From Planctomycetota bacterium (GTDB lineage: Bacteria > Planctomycetota > Planctomycetia > Pirellulales > Pirellulaceae), in NCBI GenBank assembly GCA_039179795.1, contig JBCDEM010000001.1, positions 567,045 through 631,044 on the forward strand: 64,000 nucleotides of DNA. The letters run 5' to 3'. The notes under the pieces were generated by a model, which ran no database searches, was not told the origin of the DNA, and saw only the letters and a program-made list of their open reading frames with translations. The position numbers and the translations under genes are program-made. How positions within the stretch are numbered: the first letter of the stretch is position 1; each line of letters starts with the position of its first letter. Below are positions 16,149-26,724 of this stretch, in pieces.

Positions 16149-16356
16149 ATCGAGTTCCTCGTGTTTTCGGTTGATCTTATGGGGATCATTGAGCGTTGAA
16201 GTCCCGTCGAAGATTTCATGCGTCAGCGGCGGAATCGACCCTTCACGTTTTTTGTATTTCTTCTCCGAATTGTTCTGACGTCTGAGGGGTTTCCCTGACA
16301 AACGCCGCATGTATTCTTGAAACCCAGCAAGAAGAGCGACTGAATTGAGGGAAGCT

Positions 16357-18417
16357 ATGCCAACACTTGAGGAGATAGAGTCTCTGTTTCACGAGGTGCG
16401 ATGCCTTGACCCAGCAGAGCGGGAGTCTTTTCTGAAGTCGCGTTGTGGTGACAACGATGCACTCTTTCATCGCCTGTCCGTCATGTTGAAGCTGGATTCG
16501 GAGGACCATGCTGTCCTAGACGATTTAACGAGGGCAAGCACGGCAGTTGAATCAGAACGAGCAACCCCATCTGACAAGCCCGTCGAAAAAGTAAGAGTCC
16601 TTCCCAGTGGGGCCAAGATCGATCATTTCACGATTGTTCGTGAGATCGGCCGCGGCGGCATGGGGATTGTCTACGAAGCCCACCAGCAGACGCCGATTGA
16701 GAGGCGCGTCGCCATCAAGGTGATGCAGCAACAGGCAGTTCGAAGTGTTGAGCTTGAAAGACGTTTCATCCAAGAAAAGCGGGCCCTTTCTCGACTGCAA
16801 CACCCAAACATCACGACGATCTTCGATGCGGGTGTCGATCTGCAGGGACATCTCTATTTCGTCATGGAATTTATCGATGGGATGGAGGTAACGGAATTCG
16901 CCGATGCCCAACAGTTGACGATTTTGCAACGCATTGAAATGGCCGAGCAAATATGCCGCGCGATTCATCATGCGCATCAACGAGGCATCCTGCATCTCGA
17001 TATCAAGCCGAGCAATCTTCTGGTTCATGAAATGGATGATGGACAGACTCCGAAAGTGATCGACTTCGGGATCTCGGAAGCCATCCAAGCCATTGAGTCA
17101 ATTCCGCATCAGGGCAAGCCGTCGCGAGATTCAGATTTGCTTAATGACCAGGATGGCGATTCGTTCAAGCAAGTCGAAAGATCACCGTCCGTTGCAACAA
17201 CGAATGCCGAAGACCTTGTCACCAAAAGCAAAAGCGATGGGCCACGCGGCGCCGTCGGGACACCTTGCTACATGAGTCCAGAACATCTTCGGATGGTTCC
17301 TGGGGAGCTCGATGTGCGGGCGGATGTATTTTCCTTGGGTGTTGTTCTGTATGAGTTGGCTGTGGGAACGTGTCCGTTGAGACGTAAGGATGCTGATCGC
17401 GGCGGCTGGCGTGAGGTAGTGGATGCGATTCGAGACTGCAATTGGACACAACCGATTGATCGCTGGCGGGAATACGGCGATGAGGAGACAGCGAGCTTCG
17501 CTGAGAAACGATCCATGAAGCCCCGTGAAATAGAGCGTGTGTTAAACGGTGAGTTTGGTGCGATTGTCGCTAAGTGCATCCACAAAGACCCAGACAATCG
17601 CTACGAGAGTGCTGCGGCGCTCGCTCGTGACCTAAGTGCTTTTTTGGAATCACGGCCTTTGGATGCGATGCCGCTAACGCTGCGGTATCAAACGGCCAAG
17701 TTGTATCAACGAAATCGCCTATCGTTTTCAGCAGCTGCAATGTTGGCCGCTTTGGTGTTGGTGATCTCTGTTGTGACAACGTGGCTTGCATACAAGAACG
17801 ATCGTCTTCGAAGTCTTGCCGATCGACGGGCCGTTCAATTGCAGGCGAGAGAAACACAACTCGCAACTGCGAATCAGGGGCTCAAGTTAGCTCTCGATCG
17901 AGCCGTCACGGCAGAGAAAGAGGTGAGATCCAACTTGGAGGAGAAGCGACGGGCAGCTGCCATTGAGAGAGCAGGGAGTCGCTATGCGTTGCAACGAGCT
18001 TCTATCGCATCCGACAACTCAACCGTCCCTTCACAAGGACAGCCTACGCCGGCTGAACAGAACCCATTGGCAGCACGGAGTGATCTCCAGCAATTGCCGA
18101 GACTCGACGATTTCCTGGAGCTAGCGAATCAAGTCGATCCGTCCTCAACTCCTCAGATGTTTAGCTTTGGAGGGATTCCCGTCCAGATCTCCAATTCGTC
18201 CGCCGAGGTTTCCATCGTGACGACCCCCTTAACACCTCAAGGAAAAACGTTGGAGGCTGGTATTCCAACAGATGCCTACCTCGCGGCGTTGATCGAGTTT
18301 TCAGGCGGCCGCATCGAGGAGTTGCAGTCGATGGTCGCCGATGAACTGCGTGATGAGTTTGGTGAAACGCACGAGATCTATCAGGAGTTCCTGCGATCTA
18401 TCGAGACGTCACGTTAG
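16357..18417 (+). CDS. Membrane-anchored Hanks-type Ser/Thr protein kinase
   Basis: IGRGGMGIVY, VAIK, HLDIKPSN, DFG, GTPCYMSPE, DVFSLG; TM LSFSAAAMLAALVLVISVVTTWLAY, then a coiled coil. Confidence 0.95.
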   Translation: MPTLEEIESLFHEVRCLDPAERESFLKSRCGDNDALFHRLSVMLKLDSEDHAVLDDLTRASTAVESERATPSDKPVEKVRVLPSGAKIDHFTIVREIGRGGMGIVYEAHQQTPIERRVAIKVMQQQAVRSVELERRFIQEKRALSRLQHPNITTIFDAGVDLQGHLYFVMEFIDGMEVTEFADAQQLTILQRIEMAEQICRAIHHAHQRGILHLDIKPSNLLVHEMDDGQTPKVIDFGISEAIQAIESIPHQGKPSRDSDLLNDQDGDSFKQVERSPSVATTNAEDLVTKSKSDGPRGAVGTPCYMSPEHLRMVPGELDVRADVFSLGVVLYELAVGTCPLRRKDADRGGWREVVDAIRDCNWTQPIDRWREYGDEETASFAEKRSMKPREIERVLNGEFGAIVAKCIHKDPDNRYESAAALARDLSAFLESRPLDAMPLTLRYQTAKLYQRNRLSFSAAAMLAALVLVISVVTTWLAYKNDRLRSLADRRAVQLQARETQLATANQGLKLALDRAVTAEKEVRSNLEEKRRAAAIERAGSRYALQRASIASDNSTVPSQGQPTPAEQNPLAARSDLQQLPRLDDFLELANQVDPSSTPQMFSFGGIPVQISNSSAEVSIVTTPLTPQGKTLEAGIPTDAYLAALIEFSGGRIEELQSMVADELRDEFGETHEIYQEFLRSIETSR

Positions 18418-18462
18418 TGTGGACGTTGAACAGATGGTAAGCGTCGGCCGTGGAAGCCGCAC

Positions 18463-19035
18463 TTATTCATGCGGATCCATTCGTTCCGCCAACCACGCTC
18501 TTGCGAATCGCCATCGCCGCTCGACCGTGCTCAAGCTCATGTCGAGTGCGTTCGCGATTTCATCCATCGACAATCCCACAAAGAACTTGAGCTTGACGAG
18601 ATCAGCCAGCTCTTTGGATTCGGATTCCAATTGGTCAAGGTGCTCGTTGAGATCCAATACGTGATCCATGGAAAGTGACGATGATTGCAGGATCGAAGGA
18701 CCAAGCGAGTCTGAGAGTTCCCGTTTAACGGCATCGCCGCCTCTTTTAAGGCGCGCCTTGGAGCGGGCCGAATCGACGAGGATTCGTCGCATCGATTCCG
18801 CCGCTGCACCAAAGAAGTGTCGACGGTTTTCCCAACTTGAGTTTTCACTCGGTGCAAGGCGAAGGAAAGCCTCATGAACGAGTGCCGTCGCTTGAAGCGT
18901 GTGGTCTTTTCTTTCCGAAAGCATCTGAGCGCGAGCCATCTCGTTCAATTCGGTGTACACACACTCGAATAACTCATCACGCACGTCGTGCCCATCGTTC
19001 ATATCACCCAGGATTTCAGTTAGCCGACGAACCAT
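18463..19035 (-). CDS. ECF sigma factor of the kinase-associated type (ECF43/TIGR02999-like)
   Basis: DHTLQATALVHEAFLRL, RHFFGAAAESMRRILVD, RLKRGG, C-terminal HTH ending RWRFARAWL. Confidence 0.93.
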   Translation of the reverse strand: MVRRLTEILGDMNDGHDVRDELFECVYTELNEMARAQMLSERKDHTLQATALVHEAFLRLAPSENSSWENRRHFFGAAAESMRRILVDSARSKARLKRGGDAVKRELSDSLGPSILQSSSLSMDHVLDLNEHLDQLESESKELADLVKLKFFVGLSMDEIANALDMSLSTVERRWRFARAWLAERMDPHE

Positions 19036-19887: not shown

Positions 19888-19917
19888 GAAAATCCGCGGT
19901 ATCGAAACTGCTGTTGA

Positions 19918-19966
19918 TTCGCGTACGTTTGTACGCCTAGGATGTTCACGTACAAGCGTACGCGAA
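19918..19966. promoter_or_regulatory. Putative BlaI-family double operator
   Basis: 18-bp inverted repeat TTCGCGTACGTTTGTACG-N13-CGTACAAGCGTACGCGAA (1 mismatch). Each arm contains CGTAC-N4-GTACG. Ends 31 nt before the BlaI start. Confidence 0.75.
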
Positions 19967-19997
19967 ACAGCCTCGACACGAGAAATGGAGTGAAGCG

Positions 19998-20390
19998 GTG
20001 GGTGATCGACCATCCCTTTCAAAGGGTGAGTTGGATGTTGCTCGAGTCCTGTGGGAGATCGGGCCGGCAGCCGTCCGGCAAGTGCACGAAGTGCTCGCGA
20101 AAGATCGCGGCATGGATTTCTCGACCGTCCAAACGTACCTCCGGCGACTGGAATCAAAGCAGTATGCCAATTCGCGGCTCGAGGGACGAATTCGCGTTTA
20201 CTCAGCCCGCGCTAAGCCTCGCACCGTCATTCGCCAAACGGTCGATGAACTCGTCGATGTGTTGTTCGGTGGTGAAACGATGCCGCTGGTTAAACATCTG
20301 ATTGAAGACGGCGACATCAGTTCAGATCAGCTCGGTGAGCTGAAGAATCTGATCGAACGGATGGAACAGGGCAGGGGAGAGGAGGAATGA
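19998..20390 (+). CDS. BlaI/MecI/CopY family transcriptional repressor
   Basis: LSKGELDVARVLW, STVQTYLRRLESK, RIRVYSA, VLFGG..PLVKHL, SSDQLGELKNLI. GTG start. Confidence 0.95.
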   Translation: MGDRPSLSKGELDVARVLWEIGPAAVRQVHEVLAKDRGMDFSTVQTYLRRLESKQYANSRLEGRIRVYSARAKPRTVIRQTVDELVDVLFGGETMPLVKHLIEDGDISSDQLGELKNLIERMEQGRGEEE

Positions 20391-23300
20391 TGGATAGTCA
20401 GTTTCTCAACCTAATGCTGTGGCAAGCGATTCAAATCGCGATCTTAGTCACCGTGACCAAACTGTTGCTCAAAACTCCGGGCAGAACTCGCCCGTTTCTC
20501 TCGCACGTACTTTGGGCCGTCGTGCTCATCAAATGTATCACGCCGCCGATCTGGAGCAGCCCTTTCGGGGTGTTTACTCAGATGGCCAACCACGTGGAGC
20601 TTTCATCTCTTCGTTCAAATGTCACAAGTCAAGATGCATTGACTGCGAGAGCAAGTGAACGGCCATGGGAGGCTGTGGAAACGAATCCGCAAGACTCAAC
20701 ACTCTATGCGAGGATCCATGTCGATCCATTGGAAACCGCATCACTCGCCGAACCCATTGAAGTAGGTGCATCCACTCGATTTCAACATGGGCGGCCAGAA
20801 TCGAATGATTCGACGGAACGAATCGTTGGCGTTCCCCTACTGGTCGTTTGGTTGGGAGGTGCCATATTCGCCGCTGGATTTCTATTTGTGCGACTGATTG
20901 CTTTCTTCTATCGACTGCAGTCGTTACCCATCCGGCAATGTCCGGAGTTGGATCAACTGACGCTGCGGTTAAGCAAACGACTAAGAATTCGAAAGTCGGT
21001 TCGAGTGCATATTGTTGACGGCAATATTGGACCGGCCGTGCTCGGTTGGTTTCGGCCCCGCGTCTTGCTTCCGGAAGTGATCGTTAACGATACACAACCG
21101 AATTCACTGCGGCTTTTGATCACGCACGAGCTCATGCACATTCGCAGGGGTGATCTTTGGTGGGCTGGACTTCAAGAGATCGCTCGATGTGTTTGGTGGT
21201 TTCATCCATGGGTCCGCCACGCCGCGAAATCCATGGAGTGCGAAACGGAGAAATGCTGTGATCAACAGACGATGACGGCCATGAAGTGCCTGCCATCCGA
21301 CTATGCGAAATGCCTGGTCGAAGTCTTGGAAAAGAAACATCAACTTCGTGCGGCACCTACGTTTCCGGGTGTTCGCGCAATTGACATTACCACGGAACGG
21401 TTGGAGAGAATTATGACAACGGATGTGAAACGTAAAACACGCAACCAAGTCTGGGTGTGGCCTTGCTTACTGATTGCTTGTGCGGTGATTTTGCCGGGAG
21501 CAGGAATGGTTTCGGCGCAAACAGATCAAACGGAATCAACGCAAACGGAAGGTAAGGCAACGTCAACCACCGAGTCATCGCAAGCCAAGCGATCATCAGA
21601 CCGGAAGGATCCTTCCCCGGGAAGCGAAATAGCAACTTCGGGTGATGGCGAAACTGGCTTGATCACTCACGGGCGTCTGGCACGGACCGGCCGATTCATT
21701 TTTGGTTCGGCAGTGAACAGTGATGCAGGTCTTGAAGGTCAGGTGATCACCGAAGACTCTCCTACGCCGGAGCAATCGGCCAAGCAACCGAAGGTTCTCC
21801 CTAACCCTGTTCCAAACGAACGAATCGCAACGCGAATCGTCACGAAAACACCTGTCCTTCGCACCTATTCCATCCAAGGAGTGCTGAAGCGATTACGGGA
21901 GACCGGAGTCGACAGAGAGACGGCAGAAACCCAGTTTTTGAACATGCTTCCGAAGATTCCCGATAACAACCTTCAAGTCGATCTCCAGGTCTTTTCTGAG
22001 GGCGACGGAGAGGAAGACGGCTCGAACACTCCGAAACGACGTGGAGCCGTGATACAGGATGAGAGGCTGTTTCTAATGGCTCCTGAGCACATTCACCAAG
22101 AGGTCACCGACCTGATTCGACGCAGCGAGCGTTTCGGATTCGAGCAAGTTTTAATCGAAGCCTCTCTTGTGTTGGTTCCGACCGACCAATGGGAGTCACT
22201 CGGCGTTGAATGGCGACCCATCGTCAAGGCCGAACACGATTCAGATTCAGTTTCGGACGTTGCCCCGGCAGCACCCGCGTTGCCGCGACTGCCGACGCTC
22301 ACAGCACCGATCGCGTCTGTTCGTTTGCCTCAGCTTCCGACCGCTAATCTTCGTGATACAACGACTCAAAATACCGGACCGAAACCTGATCCTTCCAATG
22401 CGCCGGAATCCAACACACAAGAATCCAATACCGTTGATCAATCCAGCGGGGACATTGATCAGGTCGCCGTACAAAGTCCAGCATCGGTCAGACAGTTGAG
22501 TGCACATACTTCCATTCAGCGCTTTAATCAGATGGAGATCGCCGTTCTTGACCATAACCCCACCGAACGCGTTGTCCGTTCGGTGAAAGGAATTCAAGTG
22601 CTTTCCGTACCAAAGGTGATCACCGTCAATGGCCGATCTGCCGCGATCGAAGTCGGTGCCAAACAGAAGCTGATAAGTGGTTATCAATCCACGGCCGATG
22701 GCAAAGGAATGGAGCCCCTTCATGAGGATGTACAGGTTGGAACGACGATGAACTTAAAGCCGGAAGTTGTCGATCGACGCTACGTAAAACTGAACGTCAA
22801 TTTGCAGTTGTCCCGCTTGGTGGATGCGCCTCAGAGTGAATCAGTTGCGAGACGTATCGCGAAGTTCGGCGATCCGATTCAGGCGTTGTCGGAAACTCAC
22901 ATCGAAACCATGTGTAACATTCCGCTTGGCCACACGCTGGCGATCGGTGGATTAGAAGTGGAAGAGCACGGAAAACCACATCGATTGCTCTGCTTCATGC
23001 GATGTGATCTCGTTTCCAACGTCGTGAAGAATCAGAAAGAAGGCAACGCTGAGGCCCTGCGGCCGCCCAGATACACGAAGAGGTTAACGACGCTGTCATT
23101 CGTAGATGGGAAGATGCCCATCGTTGGTAGTGCAGCAAATAGTGACGGTGATCAATCGACTCTGATTTTCGACTTGTTGGGAAAAGAGGACCAGAGGGTC
23201 AAGCTCTCTGGTGACTCGAGCGTTGAGGCGAAGAGTGGCTCGATGGATCTTCGCGTTCGGGATTTTCGGCTCGAGTGCTCTGATGGTGACCGGTTGGCGG

Positions 23301-23530
23301 CTGATCGGGCACAGATTCGCTTGCGATCCGATGCATCAACCTCAGCTCACCTTGTCGGGAGCGTTTACGTCCGATTAGGAGATCGTGAGATCAAGGCTCA
23401 CGAATGCCGAATTATCGGCGAGACGATCATTCTGAATGGCAACGTCCAAGTCAAATCGGATGAGATGGAATTCACCACGGCCGATCTGCGGTTGACCATC
23501 CCAGACGATTCGACGAAGTCGAGCAAGTAA
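20387..23530 (+). CDS. BlaR1/M56 family metallopeptidase fused to secretin-like and beta-rich C-terminal domains
   Basis: GPAVLGWFRPRVLLP, HELMH (21125-21139), WWFHPWV, EKCCD, YAKCLV. Later VLIEASLV, VLSVPKVITVNGRSAAIEVG, VGTTMNLKPEV and TLAIGGL are secretin motifs. ATGA overlap with blaI. Confidence 0.9.
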   Translation: MMDSQFLNLMLWQAIQIAILVTVTKLLLKTPGRTRPFLSHVLWAVVLIKCITPPIWSSPFGVFTQMANHVELSSLRSNVTSQDALTARASERPWEAVETNPQDSTLYARIHVDPLETASLAEPIEVGASTRFQHGRPESNDSTERIVGVPLLVVWLGGAIFAAGFLFVRLIAFFYRLQSLPIRQCPELDQLTLRLSKRLRIRKSVRVHIVDGNIGPAVLGWFRPRVLLPEVIVNDTQPNSLRLLITHELMHIRRGDLWWAGLQEIARCVWWFHPWVRHAAKSMECETEKCCDQQTMTAMKCLPSDYAKCLVEVLEKKHQLRAAPTFPGVRAIDITTERLERIMTTDVKRKTRNQVWVWPCLLIACAVILPGAGMVSAQTDQTESTQTEGKATSTTESSQAKRSSDRKDPSPGSEIATSGDGETGLITHGRLARTGRFIFGSAVNSDAGLEGQVITEDSPTPEQSAKQPKVLPNPVPNERIATRIVTKTPVLRTYSIQGVLKRLRETGVDRETAETQFLNMLPKIPDNNLQVDLQVFSEGDGEEDGSNTPKRRGAVIQDERLFLMAPEHIHQEVTDLIRRSERFGFEQVLIEASLVLVPTDQWESLGVEWRPIVKAEHDSDSVSDVAPAAPALPRLPTLTAPIASVRLPQLPTANLRDTTTQNTGPKPDPSNAPESNTQESNTVDQSSGDIDQVAVQSPASVRQLSAHTSIQRFNQMEIAVLDHNPTERVVRSVKGIQVLSVPKVITVNGRSAAIEVGAKQKLISGYQSTADGKGMEPLHEDVQVGTTMNLKPEVVDRRYVKLNVNLQLSRLVDAPQSESVARRIAKFGDPIQALSETHIETMCNIPLGHTLAIGGLEVEEHGKPHRLLCFMRCDLVSNVVKNQKEGNAEALRPPRYTKRLTTLSFVDGKMPIVGSAANSDGDQSTLIFDLLGKEDQRVKLSGDSSVEAKSGSMDLRVRDFRLECSDGDRLAADRAQIRLRSDASTSAHLVGSVYVRLGDREIKAHECRIIGETIILNGNVQVKSDEMEFTTADLRLTIPDDSTKSSK

Positions 23531-23582
23531 GTCGGCAATGCCGGAGTTTCGATTCGATCGGACCACGATCTATAAAATCCGA

Positions 23583-23605: not shown

Positions 23606-23706
23606 GTGGGATCTCGGAAGCGGCAGATCGTTGCTCTGGCAAGAATCGATGGAGGTGGCAAGTATACTGACGCTGAAACTTTAGATACCGCTGCTTGAGC
23701 CACCCC

Positions 23707-25269
23707 ATGAGACTATTGCAACAGCCTGTGTTGGTTTGTGTCGCCTTGATCCTTCTCCATGCAGAAGGAGCCGTGAGTGCTCAAGAGGACGGTATGGATT
23801 CTTCTGCTCAAACTGAGCAGCCTGCCATTGCCGCGCCCACGAACGAATTTGAACGCAAGATTCCGGTTGAATCGGTCGTTGAAACCAAGCACAACGCCAC
23901 GATAAACGGCGTTGATGTTTCGTATTCGGCGACAGCTGGAACCCAGCCGGTTTGGTCGGAAGACGGACAGCCGATCGCGACGCTTTTTTACACCTACTAT
24001 CGGCGTACTGATGTTGAAAAGGTCGAAACGCGACCGCTCATCATCTCTTTTAACGGTGGCCCCGGTTCCGCATCCGTTTGGATGCATCTTGCTTACACCG
24101 GACCGAGGATCCTTCGCATTGATGACGAAGGGTTTCCAATTCAACCATACGGTGTTCGCGACAATCCCCATTCGATCCTTGATGTTGCAGACATTGTCTT
24201 CGTGAATCCAGTGAACACGGGATACTCAAGGATCGTGGACGAGGATGCTGATAAGGAACAGTTTTTTGGTGTGAACCAAGACATCAACTATCTCGCAGAG
24301 TGGATCAATACGTTTGTGACCCGTGCCAACCGCTGGAATTCACCGAAGTATCTGATCGGTGAAAGCTACGGAACCACGCGTGTCTCTGGATTGGCTTTGG
24401 AGTTGCAAGACGACCAATGGATGTATCTCAATGGTGTGATTCTTGTTTCACCGACCGGACTGGGCATTGATCGAGACGGTCCCGTGGGTGCTGCCAATCG
24501 ACTGCCGTATTTCGCCGCAGCTGCCTGGTACCACAAACAACTTCCCAAGAAGCTTCAAAAGATGGATTTGTTGGATCTGTTGGAGCAGGTTGAACAGTAC
24601 ACACTCAATCAGTTGCTTCCGACCATGGCAAAAGGTGCGATGGCAGGTGACGAAGAACGCTCCGCAGCCATCAAGCAGTTTGCACGTTACTCCGGATTGA
24701 GTGAGCGTTCGATCCGGCAGCACAACTTAGACGTGCCGACGAGCTTTTTCTGGAAAGAGCTATTACGGGAGCAAGGCCAGACGGTCGGTCGTTTGGACTC
24801 TCGCTACAAGGGCCTCGATCGCATGGACGCAGGCACTCGCCCCGATTTCAACGCGGAGCTTGCATCCTGGTTGCATTCATTCACACCAGCCATCAATTCG
24901 TACTTTCGCAATGAGCTGAAATATAAAACGGACATCAAATACAACATGTTCGGTCCCGTTTCCCCCTGGGATCGTGATGGAGATGAGACGGGCGAGAATC
25001 TTCGTCAAGCGATGGCGATGAATCCGTTTTTGAAAGTGATGGTTCAAAGCGGATACTACGACGGCGCGACGACTTATTTCAATGCGAAATACACCATGTG
25101 GCACATCGATCCGAGCGGCAAAATGAAAGATCGCCTTCAGTTCAAGGGATATCGCAGCGGGCACATGATGTATTTGCGTGCCGAGGATCTGAAAACAGCC
25201 AACGAGGACATTCGGCAGTTCATTCAGCAAGCAACACCAAAGCCCGGACAACCGGCGATGTACAAGTAG
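23707..25269 (+). CDS. Secreted serine carboxypeptidase (peptidase S10)
   Basis: FNGGPGSAS, GESYGTTR, GYYDGAT, GHMMY; signal peptide. Confidence 0.93.
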   Translation: MRLLQQPVLVCVALILLHAEGAVSAQEDGMDSSAQTEQPAIAAPTNEFERKIPVESVVETKHNATINGVDVSYSATAGTQPVWSEDGQPIATLFYTYYRRTDVEKVETRPLIISFNGGPGSASVWMHLAYTGPRILRIDDEGFPIQPYGVRDNPHSILDVADIVFVNPVNTGYSRIVDEDADKEQFFGVNQDINYLAEWINTFVTRANRWNSPKYLIGESYGTTRVSGLALELQDDQWMYLNGVILVSPTGLGIDRDGPVGAANRLPYFAAAAWYHKQLPKKLQKMDLLDLLEQVEQYTLNQLLPTMAKGAMAGDEERSAAIKQFARYSGLSERSIRQHNLDVPTSFFWKELLREQGQTVGRLDSRYKGLDRMDAGTRPDFNAELASWLHSFTPAINSYFRNELKYKTDIKYNMFGPVSPWDRDGDETGENLRQAMAMNPFLKVMVQSGYYDGATTYFNAKYTMWHIDPSGKMKDRLQFKGYRSGHMMYLRAEDLKTANEDIRQFIQQATPKPGQPAMYK

Positions 25270-25336: not shown

Positions 25337-26443
25337 TCAATCGGACATGCTCGAGGGTAATTTCTTCTCAGCGATAAACCGTTGGATCATCCACATGTGG
25401 CCGAATTCCTTTCGACACTTTTCCATGTCCATGATGACTTCAACCATTGTTTGGTATCGATCGTCGACGGACTTTGCGACCATCTTCTGAAAAATCCGAT
25501 CGACTTCCGGTGCAACTTCCTCGCGAGTGGATCGCAAGGAAGGAATCGGCTGTTCGCGGTGCGCAACGATCTTCTCCATCGATGTTTCACCCGGGTAAAT
25601 GTTCTTGCCGGTGAAGGCGAAGTACATCGTGCAGCCGAGGCTGTATATGTCGGCTCGACGATCAGCGTTCTTAGCATTTAATGCCTGTTCGGGAGCGATG
25701 AAATCGGCCGTACCCATCAACGCACCAGCGCGAGTTATTTCCGTAAGGGTGACATCTGAATCGGTTGCGGCATCCGGTGAGATGACTCGGGCCAATCCCA
25801 TATCCAGGATCTTTGCGCTGCCGCTTCGATCGACCAAAAGATTGGAGGGCTTGATGTCACGGTGAATCACGTTTTTGGAGTGGGCAAACGCCAAACCTCT
25901 CGCTGCATCGAGGACGTGATCAAACGCAGTCAGAACAGCTAGTGTTTTGCGAGTGTGGAGGACGGCTCCCAGGTGAAGTCCGTCCACCAGTTCCATCACC
26001 AAAAAGTTGTGTCCTTCGTGTTCACCACTGTCGAGTGCTGTGACAATATTGGGATGTTTCAATAGGGAAGCGAGCTCGACTTCACGTTGAAACCGCTTAA
26101 TCGAAAGAAGGTCTGCGGATGCACGCGGCGCCATCATCTTCAGCGCGACCAACTGATAAGAGTTTCGTGGGCGAGCTTTGTAGACAATGCCCATGCCTCC
26201 TTCACCGATCTTATCCATGATGAAGTAGTCACCAACGATCAGTGGATCGCGGCGAGTCTCCCGGATTACCTCCGCCTGATACTCCGTGAGCTTATATCGC
26301 CGCACGAGCTGCTTAGCCAAACCATCGACATCGGTTGGTGTATCGGAGGATAGCTGTGTTCGTTCAAACTCCTGAAGCTCATCCAGCGTCATCAATCCAA
26401 CGCTGCTGAGTTTTTGAGCGAACTGATCGTAGGAAACAGACAT
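25337..26443 (-). CDS. Cytoplasmic Ser/Thr protein kinase
   Basis: IGEGGMGIVY, VALK, HRDIKPSN, DMG, GTADFIAPE, DIYSLG; no TM; N-terminal helical module. ATG at 26443. Confidence 0.95.
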   Translation of the reverse strand: MSVSYDQFAQKLSSVGLMTLDELQEFERTQLSSDTPTDVDGLAKQLVRRYKLTEYQAEVIRETRRDPLIVGDYFIMDKIGEGGMGIVYKARPRNSYQLVALKMMAPRASADLLSIKRFQREVELASLLKHPNIVTALDSGEHEGHNFLVMELVDGLHLGAVLHTRKTLAVLTAFDHVLDAARGLAFAHSKNVIHRDIKPSNLLVDRSGSAKILDMGLARVISPDAATDSDVTLTEITRAGALMGTADFIAPEQALNAKNADRRADIYSLGCTMYFAFTGKNIYPGETSMEKIVAHREQPIPSLRSTREEVAPEVDRIFQKMVAKSVDDRYQTMVEVIMDMEKCRKEFGHMWMIQRFIAEKKLPSSMSD

Positions 26444-26724
26444 GTTGCAAATAATGGCACGATCGGCGCCGACGAAGGGCGTCATTTCTACTGAAAAACA
26501 AAAGCATAATCACAATGTCCATTGTCTGGTGGCGAGTCATCTCATTCAAGCTTTTCAGTTTTGTCGGAGATTTCCTGGGTCGGGTCGATCAAATCGTGCC
26601 GCGGGATTGCATGCATCATCGCTAAACTGGGGCCGATTGACTGACAATGCCGCATAACGGTGGATCGTCGCCGAGCTGCTCGATCGTGGTGCGTGGTTTG
26701 TCGAGGCCTGCGAAGGGTGTGAGA

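Follow-up and report, generated by a model that had tools for sequence, protein, structure and literature searches.

A BlaI/BlaR1-type cassette with a secretin-fold and Lpt-type putative sensor head in a bacterium of the family Pirellulaceae

The closest described relatives of the locus considered here are the BlaR1/BlaI and MecR1/MecI pairs of Staphylococcus aureus, in which a membrane sensor of the M56 family cleaves the repressor; this paradigm is the template for the steps proposed below. BlaR1 works as a dimer. Envelope-derived heads on the M56 chassis are represented by the M56-TonB_C fusions of Bacteroidota. Here, we describe a cassette from a Planctomycetota bacterium (Pirellulaceae) located in a stretch of 64,000 nucleotides (nt), hereafter the window (GCA_039179795.1, JBCDEM010000001.1:567,045-631,044); coordinates are those of the window unless a contig is named. 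The cassette contains a blaI-type repressor gene (19998-20390, forward strand; 130 amino acids (aa), GTG start) and an M56 gene whose product carries additional domains at its C-terminal end (20387-23530, forward strand; one uninterrupted 3.1-kb frame of 1047 aa). The stop codon of blaI overlaps the start of the M56 gene (ATGA), the ATG being nested within it, an arrangement of translational coupling; unlike in the BlaR1 and MecR1 systems, the order is blaI and then blaR, with overlapping codons. In contrast to the M56-TonB_C proteins, the head consists of a secretin core devoid of the amphipathic helical loop (AHL) and of an Lpt-type jellyroll.

This BlaI/BlaR1-type cassette with a secretin-fold and Lpt-type head is a real design that recurs in related bacteria. 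Chance is excluded by Pfam matches above the curated thresholds and by homologues of 25-44% identity, found in Pirellulaceae and other Planctomycetota, that have the same architecture; two of these, the orthologues P0058 and P0057, have it in full. Relatives were searched for in one genome per species; 308 members of the M56 subfamily were returned, and the best 80 loci were analysed. The module counts given below for related loci cover 83 M56 open reading frames (ORFs) scored with family-built profiles. An exhaustive HMMER search gave 127 matches, four of them at <1e-30, while a word-index homologue search limited to aa 560-1047, the periplasmic part being too divergent for it, gave a near-identical copy as the sole match. 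Public records label such proteins only "M56 family metallopeptidase", and full-text literature searches found no paper on an M56-secretin fusion. A preliminary description of this DNA had outlined an HELMH-containing M56 peptidase with transmembrane (TM) helices, a linker, a secretin part, and a beta tail of ~110 aa; all of them lie where it placed them.

The BlaR1-type chassis

The N-terminal module of the fusion protein (20399-21442, forward strand) is of the BlaR1 type according to Pfam, hydropathy, motif, and family alignment. Peptidase_M56 (PF05569) spans aa 13-321 with E=2.1e-31 and 109.7 bits against a cut-off of 31. Four TM helices are predicted by hydropathy (TM1, aa 5-28; TM2, aa 37-55; TM3, aa 147-175; TM4, aa 355-375), and the HELMH motif is located at aa 247-251 (nt 21125-21139), between TM3 and TM4, which bears out the BlaR1-type peptidase of the preliminary description. 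The turn between TM1 and TM2 carries positive residues, as in the BlaR1 topology. The loop L2 (aa 56-145) is predicted to be outside, and the zinc-protease domain (aa 176-352) is predicted to be cytoplasmic; from this BlaR1-like arrangement, the ~670 residues beyond TM4 are predicted to be outside the cytoplasmic membrane. H247, E248, H251, and the ExExxCD block are invariant in the alignment of 12 family members.

The product of the blaI gene, a winged-helix repressor of the BlaI/MecI/CopY family, matches Penicillinase_R (PF03965) in Pfam with E=1.7e-24 over profile positions 1-114 of 115; the NCBIfam CopY/TcrY and BlaI models match it below their cut-offs. Thus, the cassette shares with BlaR1/BlaI and MecR1/MecI of S. 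aureus and Bacillus licheniformis the HExxH motif of M56, four TM helices, a cytoplasmic protease loop, a C-terminal head outside the cytoplasm, a neighbouring gene for a repressor of the BlaI family, and, at the promoter of the cassette itself, a dyad operator. Unlike BlaR1 and MecR1, the fusion has neither a penicillin-binding sensor of the class D beta-lactamase-like kind nor an accompanying resistance gene, and its head is secretin-like and Lpt-like. No match to a transpeptidase or beta-lactamase family, as expected of a penicillin-binding sensor, was found in the fusion ORF with Pfam and NCBIfam; the cue is not a beta-lactam. The NCBIfam BlaR1/MecR1 models match below threshold and over the N-terminal half only (blaR1_generic, 58.7 bits where the cut-off is 400, aligned at positions 98-344 of the 585 in the model). 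A phmmer search with the single sequence of the M56 half revealed no Protein Data Bank (PDB) chain at E<=1e-3.

The secretin-like core, the Lpt-type tail, and their recurrence

The secretin-like part begins with an N-domain-like unit (21854-22216, forward strand; aa 490-610) with the order beta-alpha-alpha ... beta-beta-alpha-beta, which ends in FGFEQVLIEASLVLVP. It was modelled with a predicted local distance difference test (pLDDT) score of ~90; the NCBIfam GspD and PilQ alignments begin here, and the family profile places the unit at the N3/secretin junction of GspD. No Secretin_N or STN match was found in the fusion ORF with Pfam and NCBIfam, and this single N3-like domain is the only one. 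It is followed by an insert rich in Pro, Ser, Thr, and Asn (22232-22507, forward strand; aa 616-707), distinguished by its composition and predicted to be disordered (pLDDT <50), which in the alignment to GspD occupies the place of the N-terminal lip/cap hairpins. The secretin-like core itself (22511-23014, forward strand; aa 709-876) consists of long beta-hairpins with pLDDT ~80-93 and was recognised by Pfam, AlphaFold2, and Foldseek. Its end is HRLLCFMRC, in which C873 is invariant across the family.

Pfam Secretin (PF00263) matches aa 735-860 with E=1.8e-13 and 50.9 bits against a cut-off of 27.5, at profile positions 7-126 of 169 only. Sub-threshold NCBIfam matches to MshL, GspD, PilQ, and SctC cover aa ~550-863. 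The AlphaFold2 monomer model of aa 480-1047, constructed from 25 aligned sequences, has a mean pLDDT of 70. A Foldseek search of this model against the PDB revealed secretins only among the top ~30 matches (GspD, f1 pIV, PilQ, BfpB, and InvG), with E from 4e-7 to 1e-4 and a probability of 1.0; the global template modelling (TM) scores are low, as expected of a flexible multi-domain monomer. The core is therefore modelled as a secretin fold; a C-terminal region without such a fold, which the preliminary description had named as grounds for rejecting its assignment, was not what the model returned. An N3-like domain followed by a long-hairpin core is common to this protein and to the secretins GspD, InvG, PilQ, BfpB, and pIV of type II and III secretion, type IV pili, and filamentous phage (PF00263; >30 chains at a probability of 1.0).

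A specific difference from canonical secretins lies towards the end of the core. The absence of the usual IPxLGDIPxLGxLF segment, pointed out in the preliminary description, was confirmed: TLAIGGLE is followed by VEEHGKPHRLLCFMRC, whereas the canonical secretins of the same genome have the segment. In these canonical proteins, ~10 residues, VPxLxxIPxxGxLF, and ~10 more residues precede the last strand. In the profile-to-GspD alignment, the "lvlGGL" strand leads nearly straight to the last strand ("LLVxxxC" against "lmvfikPtii"), and "skvPlLGDIPlLGqLF" is skipped. In each of the ten homologues examined, the Pfam Secretin match comes to an end between positions ~87 and 136 of the 169-position profile. 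The AHL is found in every structurally characterised secretin and is their most conserved region; it is thought to touch the inner leaflet first, and together with the beta-lip it is the sole part inserted into the outer membrane (PMC6532946). Unlike secretins, the fusion has no AHL, ordered lip/cap, N0/N1 domains, S-domain, or N-terminal signal peptide, and its core is tethered to an inner-membrane protease. Since the AHL is absent and the lip region is replaced by disordered sequence, we regard the head as a periplasmic receptor and not a pore; judging from the alignments and the model, the secretin-like module is probably not an outer-membrane pore.

The opposite view of the core is that of a trans-envelope device, in which it would still assemble into a ring of 12-15 copies extending to, or inserted into, the outer membrane, and the protease would be informed of the assembly or occupancy of the ring. 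The strands of the inner and outer barrels of the core are retained and confidently modelled, and the flexible linker of ~110 aa after TM4, together with further spacers, could span a wide periplasm. Moreover, in 7/83 M56 ORFs a second, complete secretin unit with an AHL-type motif is located C-terminal to the AHL-less core, and the far end of these proteins probably contacts the outer membrane. Against this, no AHL-type motif follows the core in any tail-bearing relative, so the deletion, in view of the role of the AHL (PMC6532946), is common to the present protein and all of them; the lip/cap region is a disordered low-complexity insert; S-domain, pilotin, and N0 domain are lacking; and a dimer of the BlaR1 kind is hard to square with a 15-mer. 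We consider such a device unlikely. Of the two readings offered by the preliminary description, the repurposing of a secretin fold as a periplasmic sensor is thus favoured over the trans-envelope reporter, because the AHL is deleted family-wide and the lip/cap position is disordered.

Three stand-alone proteins of the same genome (344-446 aa) likewise contain secretin-like domains without the AHL and are possible partners or relatives of the fused core (C7:6445-6819, reverse strand; C39:95744-96118, forward strand; C21:377851-378177, reverse strand).

Behind the core, a spacer of ~55 aa predicted to be disordered (aa 879-934) precedes the tail, an Lpt-type (OstA/LptA-like) beta-jellyroll of seven long antiparallel strands (23198-23497, forward strand; aa 938-1037). 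The AlphaFold2 model of aa 905-1047, based on 22 aligned tails, has a mean pLDDT of 82 (~95 in the core) and a predicted template modelling score of 0.72. The best Foldseek matches of the tail are the jellyrolls of LptA, LptC, LptH, the N-domain of LptD, and LptF/G, with a probability of 1.0 and TM-scores of 0.5-0.64. Searching the PDB with the tail profile yielded residues 9-124 of Escherichia coli LptA (E=1.3e-5) and LptD (4e-3). Among the 22 family tails, PF03968 (LptD_N) is found in 14 at E<=0.1 (best 4.7e-9), TIGR03002 (LptA) in 13, and LptC in eight; the tail of P0057 reaches 27.2 bits against the Pfam cut-off of 20.4 over profile positions 1-109 of 113. The tail of the present protein is a shortened and divergent family member that has lost the last repeat. 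The LptA/OstA-like tail of the preliminary description is thus upheld by Foldseek and the profiles as to fold and family relation, with a structured part at aa ~938-1037, though not as to function.

Two other assignments of the tail were rejected. EtpA is the top PDB profile match (4e-10), which sums weak repeat or compositional stretches (independent E-value ~0.02 each), and the AlphaFold2 model is an Lpt jellyroll and not a beta-helix. GspN (NCBIfam T2SS_N_SYNERG) is matched by one of the 22 tails, that of the present protein, against 13-14 for LptA/LptD_N. The tail resembles LptA, LptC, and the LptD N-domain (PF03968/PF06835) in the jellyroll fold and in the repeat signature (GN..., AD.I...). 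It differs from LptA in being about half its size, with seven long strands in place of about sixteen short strands, and from Lpt proteins in general in being fused behind a secretin fold with no link to lpt genes; lipid binding is putative.

The jellyroll also admits a more specific proposal, namely that the protein is a one-polypeptide monitor of the traffic of outer-membrane lipid (lipopolysaccharide, LPS). The tail would join the Lpt bridge by edge-strand docking or capture stalled lipid, the secretin part would serve as a ring-competent scaffold free of the membrane, and loss or overload of the bridge would lead to BlaI proteolysis. We regard this as doubtful; if true, it would amount to a new pathway for envelope stress, in a phylum in which neither LptA nor LptC nor LptD is detected by standard models.

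The fusion was also found outside the present assembly. GCA_038746795.1, a separate assembly, has the same order of kinase, extracytoplasmic function (ECF) sigma factor, small membrane protein, blaI, and M56 genes; its DNA is 99.65% identical and gap-free up to the contig end at residue 780 of the M56 protein, with three non-synonymous and one synonymous codon changes in the M56 gene. It is probably a second strain. The possibility of a misassembled chimera, raised in the preliminary description, is countered by this independent assembly (to residue 780) and by the orthologues that carry the fusion. Among the relatives, the AHL-less core is present in 57/83 M56 ORFs and the Lpt tail in 22/83, none of which lacks the core; the other ORFs of these loci are devoid of the tail. 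BlaI is encoded immediately upstream in 72/80 related loci and is the sole conserved neighbour.

That the gene is a non-functional relic or an assembly artefact, either a decaying fusion or a chimeric contig, is very improbable. Such an origin would agree with the patchy occurrence within the genus, with the short tail, divergent from the family tail, and with the two long low-complexity inserts. It is contradicted by the uninterrupted 3.1-kb frame, by the retention of every catalytic and family-invariant residue, by the three periplasmic domains modelled at pLDDT ~90, by the same junctions in the second assembly at 99.65% DNA identity, and by the full architecture shared with P0058 and P0057. 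The patchy distribution indicates that the gene is accessory. We describe a well-defined accessory gene family and not a new principle.

Candidate operator, end of TM4, and the proposed switch

A candidate BlaI operator is located upstream of blaI (19915-19969, no strand assigned). It is a palindrome with arms at 19915-19935 and 19949-19969 and four GTAC cores, consisting of GTACGtttGTAC, a 13-nt spacer with the -10-like sequence TAGGAT, and GTACaagcGTAC. A repeat search gave 90% complementarity of the 21-nt arms, and the palindrome ends 29 nt 5' of the blaI start. Of 76 related cassettes, at least 30 have a palindrome of this four-GTAC type at a distance of 0-70 nt before blaI. The spacer of nearly every such palindrome contains TAnnnT in a constant position (TAGAAT, TAAACT, and TATATT, with TAGGAT here), and this conservation suggests that the operator brackets a -10 box. 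A sigma-70 promoter scan upstream of blaI found no site at 9/12, and TTGATT-N18-TAGGAT reaches only 8/12. In the 8.67-Mb genome, the complete palindrome is found at this one place, and ten one-mismatch half-sites are found elsewhere compared with ~10 estimated by chance; the visible regulon is thus the cassette itself.

TM4 has an end resembling that of a signal peptide (21449-21517, forward strand; aa 355-377): KRKTRNQ is followed by VWVWPCLLIACAVIL and then by PGAGMVSA/QT, where the slash marks the putative cleavage point. The anatomy is that of a signal peptide, with a basic n-region, a 14-aa h-region, a Pro-Gly break, and V-S-A before Q-T. The consensus LPGAAxVxA/Q[ED] obeys the -3/-1 rule in 67/77 subfamily members, whatever the type of head. 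This signal-peptidase-like site may allow release of the head.

TM4 is followed by a periplasmic linker that is of low complexity by its composition and lies largely beyond the folded model (21518-21853, forward strand; aa 378-489). Residues ~430-452 (21670-21745) resemble the start of the POTRA domain of P0058. In P0058, the closest full-length orthologue, the linker contains a POTRA domain (PF07244, E=4e-10, aa 448-523). By alignment, modules appear to be swapped between these close relatives: here, ~20 residues like the first strand of POTRA are followed by an N-domain of another kind.

The end of TM4 is central to another reading, according to which the protein is a precursor that signal peptidase I would cut between A377 and Q378. 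The real product would then be a periplasmic secretin/Lpt-like factor of ~72 kDa for envelope biogenesis or lipid handling, and the M56/BlaI part would only set its expression or sense it non-covalently via L2. The full signal-peptide anatomy of TM4, the -3/-1 rule kept across the subfamily with Q[ED] at +1/+2, and the same GAVSA/QED signal-peptide end in the secreted S10 peptidase next door all fit this reading, as does the fact that the sole detectable BlaI target is the cassette, which would be expected were the fusion protein also the output. On the other hand, helices of N-in/C-out orientation are often followed by a short polar end that is not cleaved, and the motif is conserved irrespective of the head, so that a signal-transmitting hinge fits equally well. 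In addition, hundreds of genes keep head and protease fused, an indication that their covalent connection is of importance, at least for biogenesis. In our estimation, processing of this kind is possible but not likely.

We find it somewhat probable, by analogy with BlaR1, that the cassette is an autoregulated BlaI/BlaR switch, the head of which would lie in the periplasm, form no pore, and sense a cue from the envelope. In this scheme, BlaI dimers bound to the palindrome would shut the operon off. A periplasmic cue would be received by the head, the change would reach the M56 domain in the cytoplasm by way of TM4 and the outside loop L2, and M56 would cleave BlaI, derepressing the cassette. 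The likeliest class of cue would be an envelope state, sensed either through a ligand, hydrophobic or a glycolipid, in the groove of the jellyroll or through edge-to-edge docking of the jellyroll and the secretin fold on an envelope-spanning machine.

Several points weigh against this autoregulated sensor. BlaI cleavage, ligand, and regulon are assigned by analogy, and the regulon search of the genome revealed no operator-bearing target besides the cassette. Cleavage at the conserved signal-peptidase-like site at the end of TM4 would uncouple the head from the protease, and the monomer model cannot reveal ring formation by the core. The tail of this protein, taken alone, scores 15.6 bits with LptD_N, short of the required 20.4. 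Genes for Lpt, secretion, or pilus components are neither found nearby in the window nor conserved beside the cassette, and only one of 24 genomes of the same genus has a clear relative, tail-less and at 30% identity. Finally, the Pfam models of LptA/LptD_N, LptD, and LptC find nothing in the 100%-complete genome on which the tail could dock; the LptD control fires in only 2 of 14 control genomes, and this empty search may reflect insensitivity. The periplasmic and outer-membrane Lpt parts of this genome may be divergent rather than absent. Two LptF/LptG genes are present on other contigs (C94:58826-59989 and C59:466651-467754, both on the reverse strand).

BlaI/BlaR1 is the textbook one-step proteolytic sensor of antibiotics, and in Planctomycetota the same chassis would be driven by parts of envelope machines. 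Identification of the cue would open a way to study how these bacteria keep watch on their unusual envelope and would provide a secretin fold that is naturally soluble or tethered; the small operator/repressor pair could then be used as a genetic tool.

Head variety and genomic surroundings

The genome encodes 13 M56 proteins, and 11 of the other 12 genes have their own blaI directly upstream. The heads of these 12 are unrelated, each protein having a different one, and include Ig/CarboxypepD_reg-type repeats with thioredoxin-like ends, leucine-rich repeats, and coiled coils. A swappable periplasmic head on an M56 chassis is therefore the local norm, and judging from the sequences the set appears to be a large family of one-step proteolytic sensors. 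The genes are located on the forward strand at C51:38581-39195, C31:48570-49277, C91:10344-10979, C91:304287-304889, C46:22086-22718, and C86:247970-248518, and on the reverse strand at C35:366459-367427, C3:15785-16732, C93:10264-10800, C21:12969-13493, C16:9985-10776, and C51:42175-42789.

Variation is also observed within the secretin-bearing subfamily. The modules that follow the core are the Lpt tail, a second complete secretin with the AHL, Poly_export (Wza-like), or a pilus N domain, and P0058 has POTRA; each of these varying modules is a part, periplasmic or close to the outer membrane, of a machine that spans the envelope. The relatives with an AHL-type motif after the AHL-less core are L020, L065, L079, L057, L038, L039, and L023, the first three of which finish with what is recognisable as the C-terminus of a complete secretin (e.g., VGVPMLSKIPHVTKLFKN...LLVTPRIV). 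Since the AHL motif follows an AHL-less core in these proteins, two secretin units of unequal completeness can share one M56 protein.

The neighbours of the cassette in the window include a small membrane protein and a divergent pair (16345-19035) that encodes a Ser/Thr protein kinase of 690 aa and a planctomycete-type ECF sigma factor (PF07638, E=7e-55). According to the conserved-neighbour analysis, the kinases, ECF sigma factor, membrane protein, and S10 peptidase are not conserved beside the cassettes. The S10 peptidase (Peptidase_S10, E=1e-13) is a secreted serine carboxypeptidase that begins with a signal peptide; its gene (23695-25269) follows the cassette downstream at a distance of 165 nt. 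A second kinase is encoded on the reverse strand (25337-26485). Directly after the stop codon of the fusion ORF, a terminator-like hairpin is located (23532-23554, forward strand), which has only a weak match to the consensus.

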